DNA of 34,582 nucleotides from the UHGV virus genome UHGV-0129090. One strand, 5' to 3'. Source of the stretch: a virus. The number at the start of each line of letters is the position of its first letter. The first letter of the stretch is position 1. Position numbers and translations under genes: made by a program. The notes under the pieces were generated by a model. The model saw only the letters and a list, made by a program, of their open reading frames with translations. It had not been told where the DNA came from and did not search any database. Positions 20,560 to 34,582 of this stretch are shown here, piece after piece.

Positions 20560-21083
20560 TATCGTGATCTCCTAAATGTAGTAATTGATTTAATAGGACA
20601 ACCAGTATTGAAGCCTTTCATATCCGAAAGTAAATCATTTGCACGACTGACATATACGGGGCGTAGTTTCATAAGTATTTCGCTACTTTCATATGTTAAT
20701 GATTTATTCTGGATTGATTGACTTAATACACCACCGCCCTTAATTCGATCCATGATGATTTGATCAATATCTTTGATGATTTGCATCAGGTCATTGTATT
20801 CTGACGCCTTTGAGGTTGGATCTACTACTTCGAATTGCTGTACTCCATATGCTACGGTACTGTTAATAATTGCAGTCCATACACCCGCTACCCAATTGCT
20901 AGTATCAATATCGGGGAAGGGATATGTATATGAGGTCTTTACCCCGTTTGGATCAATCAAGTCTACTTCTGATCCTGCGGGGTAATCGAAAGTAATAGTT
21001 TCGCCTTTAAAGATATCGCCTTTTAAAGTTACTTTGCGAACTATTGCCATTTTATTTTTTTCCTTATTTAAAGAATCCACCAC
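20559..21083 (-). CDS. Hypothetical head-associated protein (lambda gpW position)
   Basis: Positional: between terminase and portal. Confidence 0.3.
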   Translation of the reverse strand: MVDSLNKEKNKMAIVRKVTLKGDIFKGETITFDYPAGSEVDLIDPNGVKTSYTYPFPDIDTSNWVAGVWTAIINSTVAYGVQQFEVVDPTSKASEYNDLMQIIKDIDQIIMDRIKGGGVLSQSIQNKSLTYESSEILMKLRPVYVSRANDLLSDMKGFNTGCPIKSITTFRRSR

Positions 21084-22977
21084 CTTTACGCGGCCTTATT
21101 ACTCGTTTTGGAGTTGGCTTAGTTGGTGCTTCTTCTGTATTTACTTCTTTATTTAGTCCTGCTTTCTCTTTTTGTTTCGCGTTGTATTCCCTTAGTTGTC
21201 GGAATGGTTGACTACCTAACTTAGATAGATACCACTGGAAACATATAAGCGAGTAATTAAGACAATCGAGAGTTTCATTCCTCGCACTACTAACCTTTTT
21301 CACCCATACCCAGGCACCAGCCTTTATCACTCGTTTCTCGGATGTAATCTGAATAAAGTAATCATCTGGTAATGAATGGCTGAAATGTATTTGTACTTCC
21401 TTACTATTTTCACTATCGGATACAGCACGGTTTAACAATTGTCTAACGTTCGTTTTACCTAAGTTTACATTAAGGTTAATCAGGGAGTGACCACCAGCGG
21501 TACTACCTTTGAATAGTGGGTTTGAGTTAGACGTACCACCCTTAATAGGTTTAAAGATAGTAGAGTTACTGCAATAACGATATACGGTACTGGTTGCGTT
21601 GCCATTACTACTATCGACGAATCCAGCTAATACTTTAAGTGGTTTACCCGAATGTGTTTTCAATGGGGAATTGGCAAAGGCCGTTAGTTTATTCCATGCT
21701 GGGGCTTCGATTTTAGTACAGTCAATTGCGTATATACTGCGATGATCTAAAACATAGAGATTCTTCTCACTTACTCCTAGTGTAGTTACCTCCAACCTGT
21801 CGAGCTGCTGATCGACGCCGTATACCACCCCTAGTACATCGTCGGGTATATTATTAATATCTATTTCACTATCTCTTAGGTTCTCTAACAGTACCAAATC
21901 ATGGTCGGTATTCTCTTTATCAATATATGGTAGTCCTAAGACGTTGTTATAGAATGATGCTAGGTCAAAGGTATAATGTGCTTCGGCAAAGTCTGCCACA
22001 ATTGATTTTATGGAATTGATGGGGGAATAGAGTCTAGATATGTGATAGCCCATTATATCGGTTACTTCTGGTGCTGTTACTATCCATTCACCTTTACGGA
22101 TCATTCGTACGCGTTCTGCTTCGGTGATTACATTATTACACTTAGGACATTCTAGTCTTGCAGTGTCTGCATCAGGTATACGACGGCGACCGCCTTCAAT
22201 AATTTTCCATTCGAATTTAACATTCTCAAATACCATTTCGTGAGAGTGGTTACAGTGAGGGCAAGGTACATAAAACTTTTGTTTATTACTTTGTTCGTAC
22301 TGTTGGGTAATCAGGTCATGTTCATCAAGTGGAGTAGAACAGCACATAATAAGGGGGTTACTAAATGCCTTAGTACGCTGTTCGGCGAGTTTTAAGGGGT
22401 TGCCTTCTTCGCCTAAAGCGTCAACGTTCGAAATTTCATCCAAAAATACGCGAGGGGCCGTTAGACCACGTAGTGAAGCACTACTACCCAATGACAGGAA
22501 GTAGGTAAACGTACCATCTAAATTTTGTTGTGTCTTATCGTTATTAGTATAGTTCTTGTCGTTCTTATTACTAACGAGATTCTTTAGTACCGGACACGCT
22601 TCTATCACTGCCTGCCATTTACCAGTACGGAACTTACTAGTAGTACCACCAGTAGCACCGCCAAATATCATGTTACTTGGATCATTGGCTAGGAAGTAGT
22701 ACATACTATTCTGTAGTACCGTTGTCTTGAGAAGTTGAGCACTGCTCATGAGGACCACTTTGCGGACGCGTGGATTCACGATATCGTTAATGGGTTTATG
22801 CTGGAAGGCGAATAATTTAACACGCTGCCCCTGTAGTTCGCCGTCCGGGAAGACTAGATTACTCTCTACCCAATCCGCTGGTAGTTGTTTCTTCGGAGGT
22901 AGGATTGACTTCGCCGCCCTCGTTAGGATCTTCATCATCTTCTGGTAGTTGTTCTTCATATGTTCCCTCATATTCAT
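21064..22977 (-). CDS. Terminase large subunit (lambda GpA-like); true start probably at an internal Met
   Basis: 637 aa; Cys pairs CPHC...CPKC as in GpA-type terminases; follows the small-subunit gene; 5' end overlaps upstream ORF. Confidence 0.75.
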   Translation of the reverse strand: MNMREHMKNNYQKMMKILTRAAKSILPPKKQLPADWVESNLVFPDGELQGQRVKLFAFQHKPINDIVNPRVRKVVLMSSAQLLKTTVLQNSMYYFLANDPSNMIFGGATGGTTSKFRTGKWQAVIEACPVLKNLVSNKNDKNYTNNDKTQQNLDGTFTYFLSLGSSASLRGLTAPRVFLDEISNVDALGEEGNPLKLAEQRTKAFSNPLIMCCSTPLDEHDLITQQYEQSNKQKFYVPCPHCNHSHEMVFENVKFEWKIIEGGRRRIPDADTARLECPKCNNVITEAERVRMIRKGEWIVTAPEVTDIMGYHISRLYSPINSIKSIVADFAEAHYTFDLASFYNNVLGLPYIDKENTDHDLVLLENLRDSEIDINNIPDDVLGVVYGVDQQLDRLEVTTLGVSEKNLYVLDHRSIYAIDCTKIEAPAWNKLTAFANSPLKTHSGKPLKVLAGFVDSSNGNATSTVYRYCSNSTIFKPIKGGTSNSNPLFKGSTAGGHSLINLNVNLGKTNVRQLLNRAVSDSENSKEVQIHFSHSLPDDYFIQITSEKRVIKAGAWVWVKKVSSARNETLDCLNYSLICFQWYLSKLGSQPFRQLREYNAKQKEKAGLNKEVNTEEAPTKPTPKRVIRPRKGGGFFK

Positions 22978-23455
22978 AACCGCCGATTTCTTCTAACTGG
23001 CGGTCTATCTTGTCCTGTAATTTAATTTTTAGTTCTAGAGCGTCCTGTGATTCAAATAGTTCTACATAACTTGCCGCCGGAATACTTCTTAGTACCTGAC
23101 GTAGTTGATAGAAATATTGTGATAATGTTTGCTGTACTACTGCTACCGGAATTAGTTCTCCAGATTGCTGGCGTAGTTCTAATTCTTTTAGGTCTGCTTC
23201 TGCTTCCAGTTTGCGTAGGGTTGCTTTATGAATCATTCCCTTTACATCACCATTACGCATGGGTTCGATTACGTTCGCCAATAGCCAGTCGTCTACTAAT
23301 TTCTTAGGCCAGCTAATATCCAGTCCTTTACCAGACCAGATACGGGATACTGTGGAATGTTCTACCCCGAATCTGTCGGCAATTTCTTGCCATGAATAGC
23401 GGGTTCCATCGTCTTTATTTTTTGCCATGTGATTTCCTATGCATATTTTATTCAC
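22859..23455 (-). CDS. Terminase small subunit (helix-turn-helix DNA-binding)
   Basis: N-terminal YSWQEIADRFGVEHSTVSRIW helix-turn-helix, acidic C-terminus; first gene of the late operon after a 290-bp non-coding region. Confidence 0.55.
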   Translation of the reverse strand: MNKICIGNHMAKNKDDGTRYSWQEIADRFGVEHSTVSRIWSGKGLDISWPKKLVDDWLLANVIEPMRNGDVKGMIHKATLRKLEAEADLKELELRQQSGELIPVAVVQQTLSQYFYQLRQVLRSIPAASYVELFESQDALELKIKLQDKIDRQLEEIGGYEYEGTYEEQLPEDDEDPNEGGEVNPTSEETTTSGLGRE

Positions 23456-23743
23456 TTTTGATTGATTGGTATTTTCTATCTATTTCGGTACTGATAGATT
23501 TTATCTATAGATTTGTTTGTTTTATGTAAAATTTCTCACGTATTTTTATTATAACTCGCGGCCAAACTTCGCATAGTTTGGCCTATTCAGGAGAACCTAC
23601 CTAAAGTCAAGGGAGTGATTCCATTTTTTTATCTTTTATTTAATATAAAGCACAAATTGCACAAAATCTTGATAGCTTTTACATATCAGTACCGAAGTAT
23701 ACCATCATTCTATTATTCACTGTTTATGCATTGTCTATGCAAT

Positions 23744-24130
23744 CTACTTGAGTATCACCATATTACTAACGATTACATCACAACGATAAGAGATAGGCAG
23801 ACCATCTACGGTACGGTACTGTAAGATCTCGTCGCGTAGTTCCCTTAGTCGGGTTAAGTGTGGTAGCTCACTACCGCTGAATGTATCTAGTGCATTGATA
23901 GGGTAATTAGTACGGCCTATGGTGAAGCGTGAGTAGTTTAATGTAATGTATTTATACTTAAGCGTTAGTGTATAGGTATCTATGAATAGCTCGTAACCGT
24001 CCTGTGTGATGATATGAGCGGTTATTAGCTTATCCTTGCGTGATGGTATGTATCCTGATTCCTGTCGGCCTGTGGTGCTTTCTATGGCCTTATACGTTCC
24101 ATCAGGGAAGTGTAGGTAGATTGTATTCAT
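23744..24130 (-). CDS. Hypothetical protein
   Basis: 128-aa ORF, minus-strand early region. Confidence 0.4.
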   Translation of the reverse strand: MNTIYLHFPDGTYKAIESTTGRQESGYIPSRKDKLITAHIITQDGYELFIDTYTLTLKYKYITLNYSRFTIGRTNYPINALDTFSGSELPHLTRLRELRDEILQYRTVDGLPISYRCDVIVSNMVILK

Positions 24131-24176
24131 GGTGTGATACTCCTATAGCATGTATAGGAGTATTTAGGGGATGGGA

Positions 24177-24833
24177 TTACTTGAAGTGGCGTTTACCAGT
24201 ATAGCTAGTTACGTATTCAGTATAGCCAGGTATATGTACTGGTGATTGATCTTGTAGCTGTTCTGCCGTTCCATCTGTGAATACTACACGATTTGGATGT
24301 GGGGCACATGGTTTATAGTGTTGTAGGATAAATTCTTTATTATCACTATATTGTAATGAGTCATAAGCTACTACACGTTTGCGATCTTTTAGATATACAT
24401 CATACTTCATTTCTTCCTGTACATCTGGCGGTAGATCTTTGAACAATAAGTTTTCATCAGTAGATATAGTTACGGTTATCTTTGATTTTAGTTCTAATGC
24501 GTAGTGAACTAATACACCGCCAAAATAACGATTAGTACAGCCATGATAATCACCATATAGAGAAGAATAGATAATTGAATCTAGTGCCTCTATTGGATCG
24601 TCTAACCGTTCTGATACTATTTTACGATGTTCATGACGTAAGCGGGATAGATTATCACGGATTTCTACGCAGTCTTCGCTGAGATAGAAACGATAACCTT
24701 TACCTAAATTGAAATGACCTACCCCGATTAGTTCGAATCCCGGCTTACTGGAAGGACGAATATCAATAGTACATGTAAGTCCTTTGCGGTGATCGTGCAT
24801 AATAAATTCTTCAAATAGTTCTTTACCTGTCAT
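24177..24833 (-). CDS. Hypothetical protein
   Basis: 218-aa ORF; no recognisable motif. Confidence 0.45.
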   Translation of the reverse strand: MTGKELFEEFIMHDHRKGLTCTIDIRPSSKPGFELIGVGHFNLGKGYRFYLSEDCVEIRDNLSRLRHEHRKIVSERLDDPIEALDSIIYSSLYGDYHGCTNRYFGGVLVHYALELKSKITVTISTDENLLFKDLPPDVQEEMKYDVYLKDRKRVVAYDSLQYSDNKEFILQHYKPCAPHPNRVVFTDGTAEQLQDQSPVHIPGYTEYVTSYTGKRHFK

Positions 24834-24886
24834 TATATTTTTCCTCGTTAGATTGAATAGCCCACTGTGAGTAGTGGGCTAGATTA

Positions 24887-25360: not shown

Positions 25361-25411
25361 TTACTTTCCTTATTAGATTAAAAAGCCCACTAATAAAAGT
25401 GGGCTATATTA

Positions 25412-30885: not shown

Positions 30886-31491
30886 TTATTTCTTGAATAG
30901 TGCCTGTACTTTGAATACTAAATCAGAAGGTACTTTTTGTAGTTCTTCTTGATAGGTTTTACCGCGAAGTAGTTCCATGTATACCTTACGACTAGTAGAA
31001 CGGTTGAATGTACTATTCAACGAGTAAGTTAGATCATCCAAAAGTACATTGCCATTAGTACCGAAGACGCTATACGCATGTAAGTAGATATCATGTATTA
31101 GTTCTACATCAAACTTATCTTGCATTGGTTTACGCTTACTAATACTGTATTTTACATTAGTGCTATGTGCCGTCCATTCGATGTTACTTACTTCGTTATT
31201 ATGCTTATCTTCATCAATATGATTGATAACTACATTTTTGTACTTCTTAGTAAGCCTTAAATATTCCTTACTATCAAATGTAGATCCCATCATGCGATGC
31301 ACTGCATGTTTATATGATTGATATTCATTATTAGTACGAAGATCAATCCATTTCTTTTTCTTTGAGTCGTATACTTCGGCATTCTTACTAATCCAGACAT
31401 CATCTACATAGTGTATAGTATTGTCGGTATTGTTATTGATCTTTGCTTTATATAAAGTAACTAGTACATTATTTTCATTTAGTTTTCTCAT
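30886..31491 (-). CDS. HNH endonuclease
   Basis: INHIDEDKHNNEVSNIEWTAHSTN matches the His...Asn...Asn-Leu/Ile-x-Trp core of HNH nucleases. Confidence 0.6.
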   Translation of the reverse strand: MRKLNENNVLVTLYKAKINNNTDNTIHYVDDVWISKNAEVYDSKKKKWIDLRTNNEYQSYKHAVHRMMGSTFDSKEYLRLTKKYKNVVINHIDEDKHNNEVSNIEWTAHSTNVKYSISKRKPMQDKFDVELIHDIYLHAYSVFGTNGNVLLDDLTYSLNSTFNRSTSRKVYMELLRGKTYQEELQKVPSDLVFKVQALFKK

Positions 31492-32205: not shown

Positions 32206-33804
32206 TCACTTCCTACTGTCAATCATTGTAGTAGCTAATGCCATTGCACCATCTACTACATTCTTCCAATACTCTAAAGCATCATCATCAAGATCACCAG
32301 ACAACGTACCATCTAGACTAAGACTACTAACAGATCTTAGAGTAGTAGTTAGTGTATTAGTACCACCAGTACCAGTACGCTGTATATCTACATCAATAAT
32401 CACTAGATGGCTTAGTGCATCAGACCAATACTTGATAGTACAGTATATGGTGTACTTAGACTTGCTTACATCTTCCCGTACTATGTTTATGTGCTGTATT
32501 AGCTTCTTAATGCGGTTGTTTAGTTCGATGCGATAGTTAGTATCTAAATCTAACTTATCATCATCAAAGGTTAGCTGTATATCCTTCGGTACGTCTACTG
32601 ATTTTAGGCGTATAGTCAATTCTTCCTGTTCGCGGTTCATGATCTCTAATTCATCCAGTATCGCAAACTTTTCATGCCTACTAGCTTTATTAAGACGTTC
32701 ACGGAACGCGGCAATATCCCTTTCGTTCTGAATCCACTGATCACGCAATGTTAGTACGTTATTATCTTCATGTTTATATACTTCACTGAAATCTAATCCA
32801 CGAATCGCCGTTAGTAATGGGCGTTCTAATGCGTTATATGCAATGCTACGGGCTTCACACGTTTTATTAGTACGTTTACCTAAGCAGACTGTAAAAAGAT
32901 TACCGTGGCTGTTACGCTTCACTATAATTGATTGATTGCATACTGGACACCGTGACATACCCGAAAATATATTGAGCATGTTTTTTTGGTGAGTATTACC
33001 CTTTTTGTTGGTGCTGGCTTTTAATGCCTGTACGCGGTCGTATAGGTCTTTATCAATTATTGGTGGATAACGTGCATCATCGGCAACTCGTTTATCACTA
33101 AGAGCACGTAATACGGTTACTAGTGTCCACGGCTTACCATTATCAGTATTGCCATAAGTACGGACAATCTGAGCCGCACCAATGCCATTAATATAATCAT
33201 TATACATACGCTGGATCGCCTTTGCTGTATCATTTGTACGGTACTGTTTCACGCCGTCTAGCTCTACTACATCAAACCATCGAGGCCGCACCTTTGATAC
33301 TTTTCCGTAGCGGTTGGCGTGTGACTTCTGCATCATTATACTTTTGCGTTTTGACTCCCCGTTAGCACGGTTTATTTGTATTGTAAGCACACTTAAACTT
33401 TCTGGAATATAACGCGAATACGTCATTCCTGTCTCAATCTCTAGGATAGTAGTACCACGGTTAATTAGACCGGATATGATTTCTACTGCCTGAAATGGAT
33501 CAAGACGTGTAAGGCGGTCGATGTTCTCTACGATTAGTACAGAATCATTGATCACACCGTCCATAACCATCTTTCGGTACTTGCCTAAGAGTGTTTTTTC
33601 ATTCCAGTTCTTCCCACGGAACGCCGATTTACCCTCTGCTACCATCTGCGTTATGTTCTCGGTATCGAGCGTAAAAGGTAGTCGATGGTCTAATACAACA
33701 TACTGTAAAAACTGATTGATTGTGTTTACCTGCCTTTGAATACCAAAGCCGTCAACCTGCTTGAGCGTTGAGATACGGGCATAACACCATACGGGCACTT
33801 TCAT
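32206..33804 (-). CDS. Large serine recombinase (phage integrase)
   Basis: N-terminal resolvase-type catalytic region YARISTLKQ and VENIDRLTR, followed by a large C-terminal domain with a Cys cluster (CPVCN...C...C); GGAGGT ribosome-binding site; start about 40 bp from attR. Confidence 0.85.
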   Translation of the reverse strand: MKVPVWCYARISTLKQVDGFGIQRQVNTINQFLQYVVLDHRLPFTLDTENITQMVAEGKSAFRGKNWNEKTLLGKYRKMVMDGVINDSVLIVENIDRLTRLDPFQAVEIISGLINRGTTILEIETGMTYSRYIPESLSVLTIQINRANGESKRKSIMMQKSHANRYGKVSKVRPRWFDVVELDGVKQYRTNDTAKAIQRMYNDYINGIGAAQIVRTYGNTDNGKPWTLVTVLRALSDKRVADDARYPPIIDKDLYDRVQALKASTNKKGNTHQKNMLNIFSGMSRCPVCNQSIIVKRNSHGNLFTVCLGKRTNKTCEARSIAYNALERPLLTAIRGLDFSEVYKHEDNNVLTLRDQWIQNERDIAAFRERLNKASRHEKFAILDELEIMNREQEELTIRLKSVDVPKDIQLTFDDDKLDLDTNYRIELNNRIKKLIQHINIVREDVSKSKYTIYCTIKYWSDALSHLVIIDVDIQRTGTGGTNTLTTTLRSVSSLSLDGTLSGDLDDDALEYWKNVVDGAMALATTMIDSRK

Positions 33805-33844
33805 CTACTTACCTCCATTCACTGTGGTGTACATCCTATCACAA

Positions 33845-33850
33845 CTGTTC
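33845..33850. repeat. attR core (ctgttc) at right prophage/host junction
   Basis: Same hexamer as 667-672; host frame resumes here; phage arm gtggtgtacat (33824-33834) mirrors atgtacgccac (687-697) across the core. Confidence 0.7.
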
Positions 33851-34532
33851 ATTGCTGCTGATGGGGCCGCAGTGGCGTTCGCGTCTCGATCGTGAAGCCA
33901 GCCTGCTGGGTCACAGTGGTTGCCGTATTGGCGGTAACGATCTGGATATCGCGCTGGCGTTTAAAAACCTGATGCCGTTACTGGGCATGGGTGGCGAAAC
34001 CGAAAAAGGCATCGCCCTGCCGATTCTGCCGTGGTGGAATGCGGTTGCCATCAACGACGTTCCTGCACAGAGTGATTTCTACAGTAGTGCCAACGGTCGT
34101 CTGCTTAACGATCTGGTACGCGATGCCCGCGAACCGGAAAAAGTGGCCCTGTTACAGAAAGTCTGGCGTCAGCGTTTAAGCTATCGCCTGGTGCGTAGCG
34201 CAGAAGAGAGCAAAATCGCCCTTTCAAGCACTGCGGAAACCCGCGCCTCACTGCCGTTTATCAGCGATGAACTGGCTACGCTGATTAGCCAGCAAGGGCT
34301 GGAAAGCGCCCTCAGCCAGCCACTGGCGCGGATTCTGGAACAGGTGCAACTGGCGCTGGATAACGCCCAGGAAAAACCGGACGTTATCTACCTGACCGGC
34401 GGTAGCGCCCGTTCGCCGCTGATTAAAAAAGCGCTGGCAGAACAGTTGCCGGGCATTCCGATTGCAGGCGGCGATGACTTTGGCTCCGTCACCGCCGGGC
34501 TGGCACGCTGGGCAGAAGTGGTATTTCGTTAA
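33845..34532 (+). CDS. yegD: Host YegD, 3' fragment continuing the interrupted gene (track ORF 33768-34532 includes a phage-derived 5' extension)
   Basis: GC-rich; begins CSLLLMGPQW exactly where the left fragment ends; ends LTGGSARSPLIKKALAEQLPGIPIAGGDDFGSVTAGLARWAEVVFR. Confidence 0.85.
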
Positions 34533-34582
34533 AAGAAAATGGCTCAGCAGCGGCTTAAATCAGCCTGCGCCTGAGCCAGTTT

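Follow-up and report, generated by a model that had tools for sequence, protein, structure and literature searches.

The DNA analysed here is a stretch of 34,582 nucleotides from the virus genome UHGV-0129090 (the window), and it raises the question of what is encoded in the non-coding region that separates its terminase genes from the gene upstream. The original prediction, made from the letters of the sequence, had proposed a candidate packaging or late-control site in this gap and had drawn attention to an inverted repeat with 9-bp arms and to a 10-bp palindrome within it. Comparison of the window with 32 relatives suggests that the gap, 23429–23743, probably holds the cos-type packaging site of a prophage of about 33 kb with a GpA terminase. 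The functional units are most likely three short blocks of sequence, termed Box A, Box B and the A-block, as judged by their conservation, rather than the hairpin or the palindrome.

The prophage and the bounds of the gap

The element is a prophage of about 33 kb that occupies positions ~700 to 33800 of the window and interrupts yegD in E. coli, with flanks at window 1–700 and 33768–34582. A large serine recombinase gene (32206–33804) marks one prophage end, and an HNH endonuclease is encoded at 30886–31491. No replication or repressor gene was recognised among the roughly 15 small early ORFs, and a literature search on a prophage in yegD returned nothing relevant. The sizeable ORFs of the window, barring a few, lie on the minus strand, and the order of transcription runs from ORF128 through the gap to terS, terL and the portal, capsid and tail genes.

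The small terminase gene, terS (22859–23428, minus strand), encodes a protein of 189 aa with an N-terminal helix-turn-helix. The start peptide MAKNKDDG is kept in all relatives, and terS therefore begins at the ATG at 23428 and not at the GTG at 23455. On the other side, the gap is bounded by ORF128 (23744–24130, minus strand), a gene that PGAP leaves unannotated in two complete E. coli genomes and that has no Pfam, PHROG or NCBIfam match. In tblastn searches, ORF128 is found at full length with 52–63% identity in diverged relatives and with 30% identity in distant ones and is, judged by this conservation, a real conserved gene. With the terS start at 23428 and ORF128 as a genuine gene, the non-coding gap spans 23429–23743. 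It lies directly upstream of terS and terL, both on the minus strand. A position before terminase is as had been described, but the length is 315 bp and not 290.

The large terminase gene, terL (21064–22977, minus strand), encodes a lambda-type protein matching the Pfam families GpA_ATPase (1.3e-50) and GpA_nuclease (1.5e-41). The last 119 nt of terS (22859–22977) also belong to the longest terL ORF, and the PGAP call in E. coli is identical; the lambda counterpart of this overlap is 26 nt. TerS is more divergent from known proteins: it gives a weak HTH_23 match, its helix-turn-helix most resembles the TerS-like domain of RppC (E 0.027), and an hhalign comparison with lambda Nu1 is collinear (E 0.009) with a low probability. 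It is not a Pfam Nu1 protein. A single-sequence structure model of TerS, with a pLDDT of 62.7 too poor to be informative, had no Foldseek match below E 0.5, and tblastn of TerS against sequenced phages gave no match.

Similarly, neither the gap nor the consensus core had a related sequence among 50,697 phage records searched with blastn, and no match was found in the plasmid collection. In the phage collection, the nearest TerL reaches 37% identity. The phage that carries it, DCP80, was considered as a cos relative and set aside, as its upstream region is unrelated. The DCP80 record itself (L046, PQ671644.1, ‘Escherichia phage DCP80’) is 141 kb long and labelled Straboviridae; positions 1–3716 begin with 1.3 kb of non-coding DNA rich in repeats, after which comes a GpA-type terminase, an unusual arrangement for Straboviridae.

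The 32 relatives compared have TerL proteins 45–100% identical to that of the window and come from several enterobacterial genera. They comprise 21 distinct close relatives (TerS 59–98%) obtained by protein-guided scans of genome, viral and metagenome collections, two further relatives from complete E. coli genomes (94% and 91% DNA identity), and nine distant relatives (TerL 45–67%) obtained by TerL search and contig look-ups, whose sources are Pluralibacter, Edwardsiella, Pantoea, Klebsiella, Salmonella, Yersinia and metagenomes. The prophage family occurs in Escherichia, Citrobacter, Salmonella, Klebsiella, Edwardsiella, Pantoea and Yersinia.

Conserved blocks upstream of terS

Alignment of the relatives revealed short conserved islands in a variable background. 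Box B, the more extensive of these (GAAGTTTGGCCGCGAG in the window, 23555–23570, minus strand; family consensus GAGTTTYCGCCGCGAA), has a mean pairwise identity of ~0.89 among the 21 close relatives, and the spacer adjoining it has an identity of ~0.25–0.5. In the same 21 relatives, codon positions 1, 2 and 3 of terS have identities of 0.85, 0.93 and 0.59, respectively. Box B is conserved to the same degree as terS codon positions 1 and 2, indicating purifying selection on the DNA. Indeed, the core is conserved beyond the neutral expectation and is kept in relatives with only 45–67% TerL identity, where Box A is followed by ~20 nt of unrelated spacer, the sequence AGTTTYCG and a G+C-rich run.

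Box A (TAGGTTCTCC, 23590–23599, minus strand) is the second island and a candidate equivalent of cosQ, as Box B is a candidate cosN. The distance from Box A to the start of Box B is 28–32 bp in 30 relatives, and that from Box B to the terS ATG is 126–141 nt. One lineage (L007, L008, L044) carries the Box A variant ATGATTCTT. Within Box B, the sequence forms an odd dyad, TTCGC-N-GCGAA, in which 88.6% of alignment cells are paired, compared with 15–71% when the partner columns are slid. The centre of the dyad is C, T or A according to lineage and the arms are fixed, a pattern that suggests a symmetric protein site on DNA and not an RNA stem. In the window itself, the dyad is degenerate (TTGGC-C-GCGAG).

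On the terS side, Box B is followed by an AT-rich segment (23530–23554, minus strand) that in ~12 of the 21 close relatives forms a terminator-like hairpin, CCGCGAATT..AATTCGTGG, with a T-run, and that is degenerate in the window. Beyond it lies the A-block, AAAACAAACAAA (23512–23523, minus strand), at +46 to +57 from Box B, which is near-invariant in the 21 relatives, is found at the same offset in L067, and constitutes a candidate TerS site. The A-block is followed by two tandem 13-nt repeats, AAATCTATAGATA and AAATCTATCAGTA (23489–23514, minus strand), which are specific to the lineage, as cosB accessory sites are; other lineages have different short repeat pairs at this position.

Upstream of Box A, two further elements were found. 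The first is TTGACT (23605–23610, minus strand), a −35-like hexamer with no matching −10. The second is an optional dyad, GATAT-N7-CTATC in the window (23671–23687; consensus GATAG-N7-CTATC), which is present in 12 of the 32 relatives, representing about five or six lineages that include the distant L062/L065 and L071, at a variable distance. The flank of this dyad, GTACTGATA, is the distal arm of a 16-nt inverted repeat of 94% identity that pairs 23684–23699 with 23481–23496. The word GGTACTGATAG, allowing at most one mismatch, occurs seven times in the window (at 6707, 16378, 16724, 20119, 21885, 23487 and 23683) against 0.56 expected, and five of these copies lie inside structural genes.

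An exact-pattern scan of viral contigs with GAGTTTYCGCCGCGAA recovered members of the family along with chance matches inside unrelated genes. The viral scans, one metagenome scan and 12 contig look-ups revealed no contig that ends at Box B, which counts against the packaging reading. Three contigs (L038, L042 and L075) end 56–165 nt upstream of it, in a hexamer array or in variable DNA. The hexamer array, (TACCCT)n, is located ~150 nt upstream of Box B in L014 (5630–5900) and L042 (1–60), and the end of the L042 contig falls inside it.

Two relatives have altered versions of the locus. In L039 (metagenome contig PPYF01375696.1), the Box A–Box B segment is missing ~60–110 nt upstream of the terS at 1281; the joint falls at a 10-bp direct repeat, GTATATTAAA, which in L007, a close relative, lies on both sides of the Box A–Box B segment. 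The arrangement resembles loss of the putative cos core by deletion, with the remainder of the terminase locus intact. In L044 (OGJN01000019.1, 2784–3100), Box B, which differs by one substitution, is retained along with the blocks downstream of it, and terS is readable for 27 codons before stops appear; by its sequence, L044 is a decayed remnant that has retained the non-coding site.

The inverted repeat and the palindrome

The inverted repeat that had been noted in the gap is present as described: GGCCAAACT-N6-AGTTTGGCC has perfect 9-bp arms at 23560–23568 and 23575–23583 separated by a 6-nt loop, and it is G+C-rich relative to its surroundings (13 of 24 positions, with 23–35% G+C in 100-nt windows of the gap). 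The palindrome ATCTATAGAT is likewise found at 23503–23512. Neither, however, is supported as the functional element of the gap. The palindrome is part of the lineage-specific tandem 13-nt repeats and is at chance level, since 40% of gap shuffles contain a 10-bp palindrome and the window has 18 against ~44 expected. The hairpin is not conserved: across the 21-sequence alignment, its arms pair in 47.6% of cells, equal to slid partner columns. It was also considered as a conserved structure in a second register, which was again no better than controls and was rejected.

These results raise the possibility that the 9-bp repeat has no function of its own and arose by replacement or drift of the spacer adjoining Box B. 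The repeat is absent in L035 and L074. E. coli prophages of 94% and 91% DNA identity lack it even though they match the window without a difference over ~100 nt next to Box B, towards terS. The terS-proximal arm of the repeat, AGTTTGGCC, is the left part of the conserved Box B, and its distal arm (23575–23583) sits in the unconserved spacer, among the least conserved columns (0.25–0.56).

The statistics of such repeats point both ways. In dinucleotide shuffles, perfect inverted repeats with arms of at least 9 bp and loops of 3–10 nt are expected 1.6 times by chance in the whole window, which contains six distinct ones, most of the others resembling intergenic hairpins; yet within the gap, only 1.6% of shuffles have one. 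Moreover, the nearest relatives retain a weaker dyad, GGCAAA..TTTTCGCC, L035 has AGC..GCT where others have GGC..GCC, a possible compensatory change, and the perfect dyad of the window required changes in both arms. We therefore hold an incidental origin of the repeat to be a serious possibility that falls somewhat short of probable. It is compatible with any interpretation of the region. Judged by the comparison of relatives, the 9-bp-arm repeat is a strain-specific dyad that only overlaps the conserved core; it may adjust the local symmetry of that core, or it may be neutral.

Mosaic joints at Box B

Certain pairs of relatives are nearly identical on the terS side of Box B (2–6 mismatches in 110 positions) and unrelated on the other side (35–43 mismatches in 70). 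Such joints are found between the window and both L074 and L035, between L009 and both L037 and L040, between L012 and L041, and between L010 and L075. Two of the genomes are reciprocal chimeras, with L041 combining the left side of L001 with the right side of L010 and L075 combining the left side of L040 with the same L010 right side. Relative to the GCGAR of Box B, every switch lies at −14 to +7, that of the window at 23563/23562, and Box B contains five or more joints of this kind between lineages.

Joints at this place are expected under the cos reading, because Box B would then be the site at which chromosome ends are cut and rejoined, and they are the trace to be expected where the ends of heterologous chromosomes are joined at a cos site. 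The same trace would result if packaging started at one cos and ended at a different one downstream, which has been shown experimentally for lambda and N15 (Feiss et al., PMC4669245). The joints are not proof of a cos site, because a conserved island between stretches of variable DNA is a natural crossover point.

Terminator and late-control readings of the core

The conserved core might alternatively be an intrinsic terminator or attenuator that isolates the late (terminase–head–tail) operon from the accessory genes lying upstream, with the hairpin of the window as an RNA stem-loop that replaces or competes with the terminator. In ~12 of the 21 close relatives, the minimum free energy fold contains CCGCGAAUU..AAUUCGUGG followed by a U-run, a consensus scan calls a terminator in L012 and L013, and the helix pairs 75% of alignment cells compared with 35–46% for slid controls. 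One of its pairs, G57–T78, is a G-U wobble, which is tolerated by RNA only, and L015 and L062 keep a hairpin and T-run made from different stems. The hairpin of the window and the terminator share GCC/GGCC bases in the manner of an antiterminator and terminator, the 61-nt segment containing the window hairpin folds as RNA with a minimum free energy of −16.2 kcal/mol, and the upstream accessory genes have terminators of their own.

However, the helix displays no covariation: the one pair changed on both sides is no better than shuffles, RNAalifold predicts 0 pairs and no consensus structure, and the 3' half of the helix changes without compensation, its 5' half being invariant. The hairpin is absent in the window, L002, L035, L004/5 and L007 as well as in the distant relatives that retain Box A and Box B. 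The window hairpin is followed by GCGAGUUAUAAU and has no U-tract, and no terminator was called on either strand in 22800–24400. Furthermore, a terminator leaves unexplained both the presence of Box A at a fixed 30 bp and a dyad whose centre is free to vary. We consider a terminator or attenuator improbable as an account of the core. With respect to the packaging reading, the whole window has no match in Rfam 15 at gathering score and the core has no consensus RNA structure, which favours a site acting as DNA, and the terminator-like hairpin and T-run directly past Box B in many relatives count against it.

Further upstream, the hairpins at 24858–24881 and 25384–25405 have a common stem, AGCCCACT/AGTGGGCT. 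The latter is a canonical coding-strand terminator and the former has no T-run; together they are a repeated hairpin element between accessory genes.

The remaining reading assigns the blocks to late transcription, with Box A, Box B, the dyad GATAG-N7-CTATC and TTGACA as regulator and RNA polymerase sites of an activator-dependent late promoter for terS. With terminators upstream, terS needs a promoter of its own or antitermination. TTGACA or TTGACT (TTGACW) is located 39–51 nt upstream of Box B in about six lineages, an operator-like dyad lies 54–128 nt upstream in about six lineages, distant ones included, and TATAAT-like hexamers follow Box B in several lineages. In contrast, a consensus scan of the gap found no coding-strand sigma-70-type promoter. 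Of the original prediction, it is the idea of a packaging site in this gap that is supported. The distance between TTGACA and Box A varies from 3 to 14 nt with no −10 hexamer 16–18 nt after, and a −10 would have to lie within the spacer of lowest conservation. In addition, the dyad and TTGACA are missing from more than half of the lineages, which nevertheless keep Box A and Box B, and neither a late activator nor a Q-like gene could be recognised. Late control is therefore unlikely to be the function of the core, and TTGACA together with the dyad hints at a promoter or operator next to the cos site. A sigma-54 or sigma-70 promoter within the spacer was also considered and dismissed, as inspection revealed no consistent hexamers.

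A model for a probable packaging site

The sequences of the blocks, their conservation and spacing, and the mosaic joints are observed directly in the genomes compared. They have led us to propose a model in which packaging would proceed in the direction of transcription, along the minus strand. Box A (23599–23590) would act as a cosQ-like signal for the end of packaging. Box B (23570–23555), 30 bp further on, would be the cosN-like site nicked by TerL into the chromosome ends, and the A-block, AAAACAAACAAA, would together with the lineage-specific repeats form a cosB-like site at which the TerS helix-turn-helix is anchored. We infer from the sequences which partners bind, that Box B is nicked and that the ends are cohesive.

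A more far-reaching proposal, which we regard as speculative and doubtful, is that Box A–spacer–Box B represents an undescribed class of cos site, shared by a widespread family of ~33-kb enterobacterial prophages with a serine recombinase (here in yegD). Its core would serve as the point of exchange between right-arm cargo and left-arm terminase-head modules, and the 9-bp dyad of the window would shift or sharpen the symmetry seen by TerL, giving ends unlike those of its relatives.

If the packaging model is correct, it would provide a map of the packaging signals for a prophage family none of whose members has been sequenced as a phage isolate. The short pair of motifs would locate cos in such prophages, allow their genome ends to be set in annotation and make cos-dependent mobilisation predictable. 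The joints at Box B would then illustrate a cos site as a module boundary in phage mosaicism. The understanding of terminases is left unchanged by the finding.

Comparison with known systems

Rho-independent terminators, such as would separate accessory or moron genes from a late operon, are resembled by the G+C-rich stem and T-run found after Box B in many relatives. They differ from the locus described here in that the stem and T-run are lacking in the window, do not covary, and have disappeared from distant relatives in which both boxes persist.

The simple cos site of N15 contains a single critical R3 and an accessory rR2. As in N15, the gap has one invariant candidate TerS site, at ~+46 to +57, with a repeat motif rich in G/T or A/C. 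In both lambda and N15, the critical TerS site R3 is at about bp 48–59 (PMC4669245). The N15 sequence at bp 48–59 is GAGGTTGTTGTT and the corresponding one here is AAACAAACAA (PMC4669245), so that the likeness is one of position only; unlike in N15, the motif has the opposite orientation and is not identical, and the cohesive-end sequence is unrelated.

Lambda provides the closest parallel in layout, and it also displays clear differences in sequence. Box B has no identity to the 12-nt cohesive end of lambda, GGGCGGCGACCT, and the consensus GAGTTTYCGCCGCGAA falls outside the cohesive-end group of Feiss et al., which is defined by 12-nt 5' ends similar to GGGCGGCGACCT (PMC4669245). The words that Box B and lambda do share, GTTTTCGC (to the right of lambda cosN) and TCGCCGC (on the other strand), are at chance level. 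The TerS described here has weak similarity to Nu1 and lies outside that Pfam family, and an extra optional dyad and a TTGACA hexamer are found upstream. No match to the IHF consensus lies between the core and terS; the lone match, at 23662–23674, is upstream and is not conserved.

The layout of the locus resembles that of lambda cos. The site lies directly upstream of terS–terL genes encoding a GpA-family TerL, a position confirmed for the window; in the lambda record, nu1 starts at bp 191, placing cosN 190 bp before it. The same record has GGGTCCT at 48473–48479, 30 bp before the first base of the cohesive end, and this heptamer we take to be cosQ, a highly conserved element of 7 bp. In both systems, a short conserved box (the candidate Box A here, cosQ in lambda) precedes the core by ~30 bp. 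Box A matches GGGTCCT at 7 of 7 positions in L042 but at only 5 of 7 in most lineages, a likeness with a chance of ~5% given the allowed offsets; this and the different box of the L007, L008 and L044 lineage count against the parallel. In both, the core is rich in G+C, partly twofold symmetric and best conserved on its left, and a conserved block, the candidate A-block here and R3 in lambda, lies ~50 bp past it.

The likeness extends to the segment before terS, which is variable and bears repeats and which covaries with TerS in distant relatives. Lambda and phage 21 have cosQ and cosN in common and differ in cosB and TerS (PMC4669245). Here, L062 and L065 are identical to ~45 nt past Box B and then diverge, along with the N-terminus of TerS. 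Finally, the lambda cos site, composed of cosQ, cosN and cosB, spans ~200 bp (Feiss et al., PMC4669245), and the total size of the site proposed here is likewise ~200 bp.
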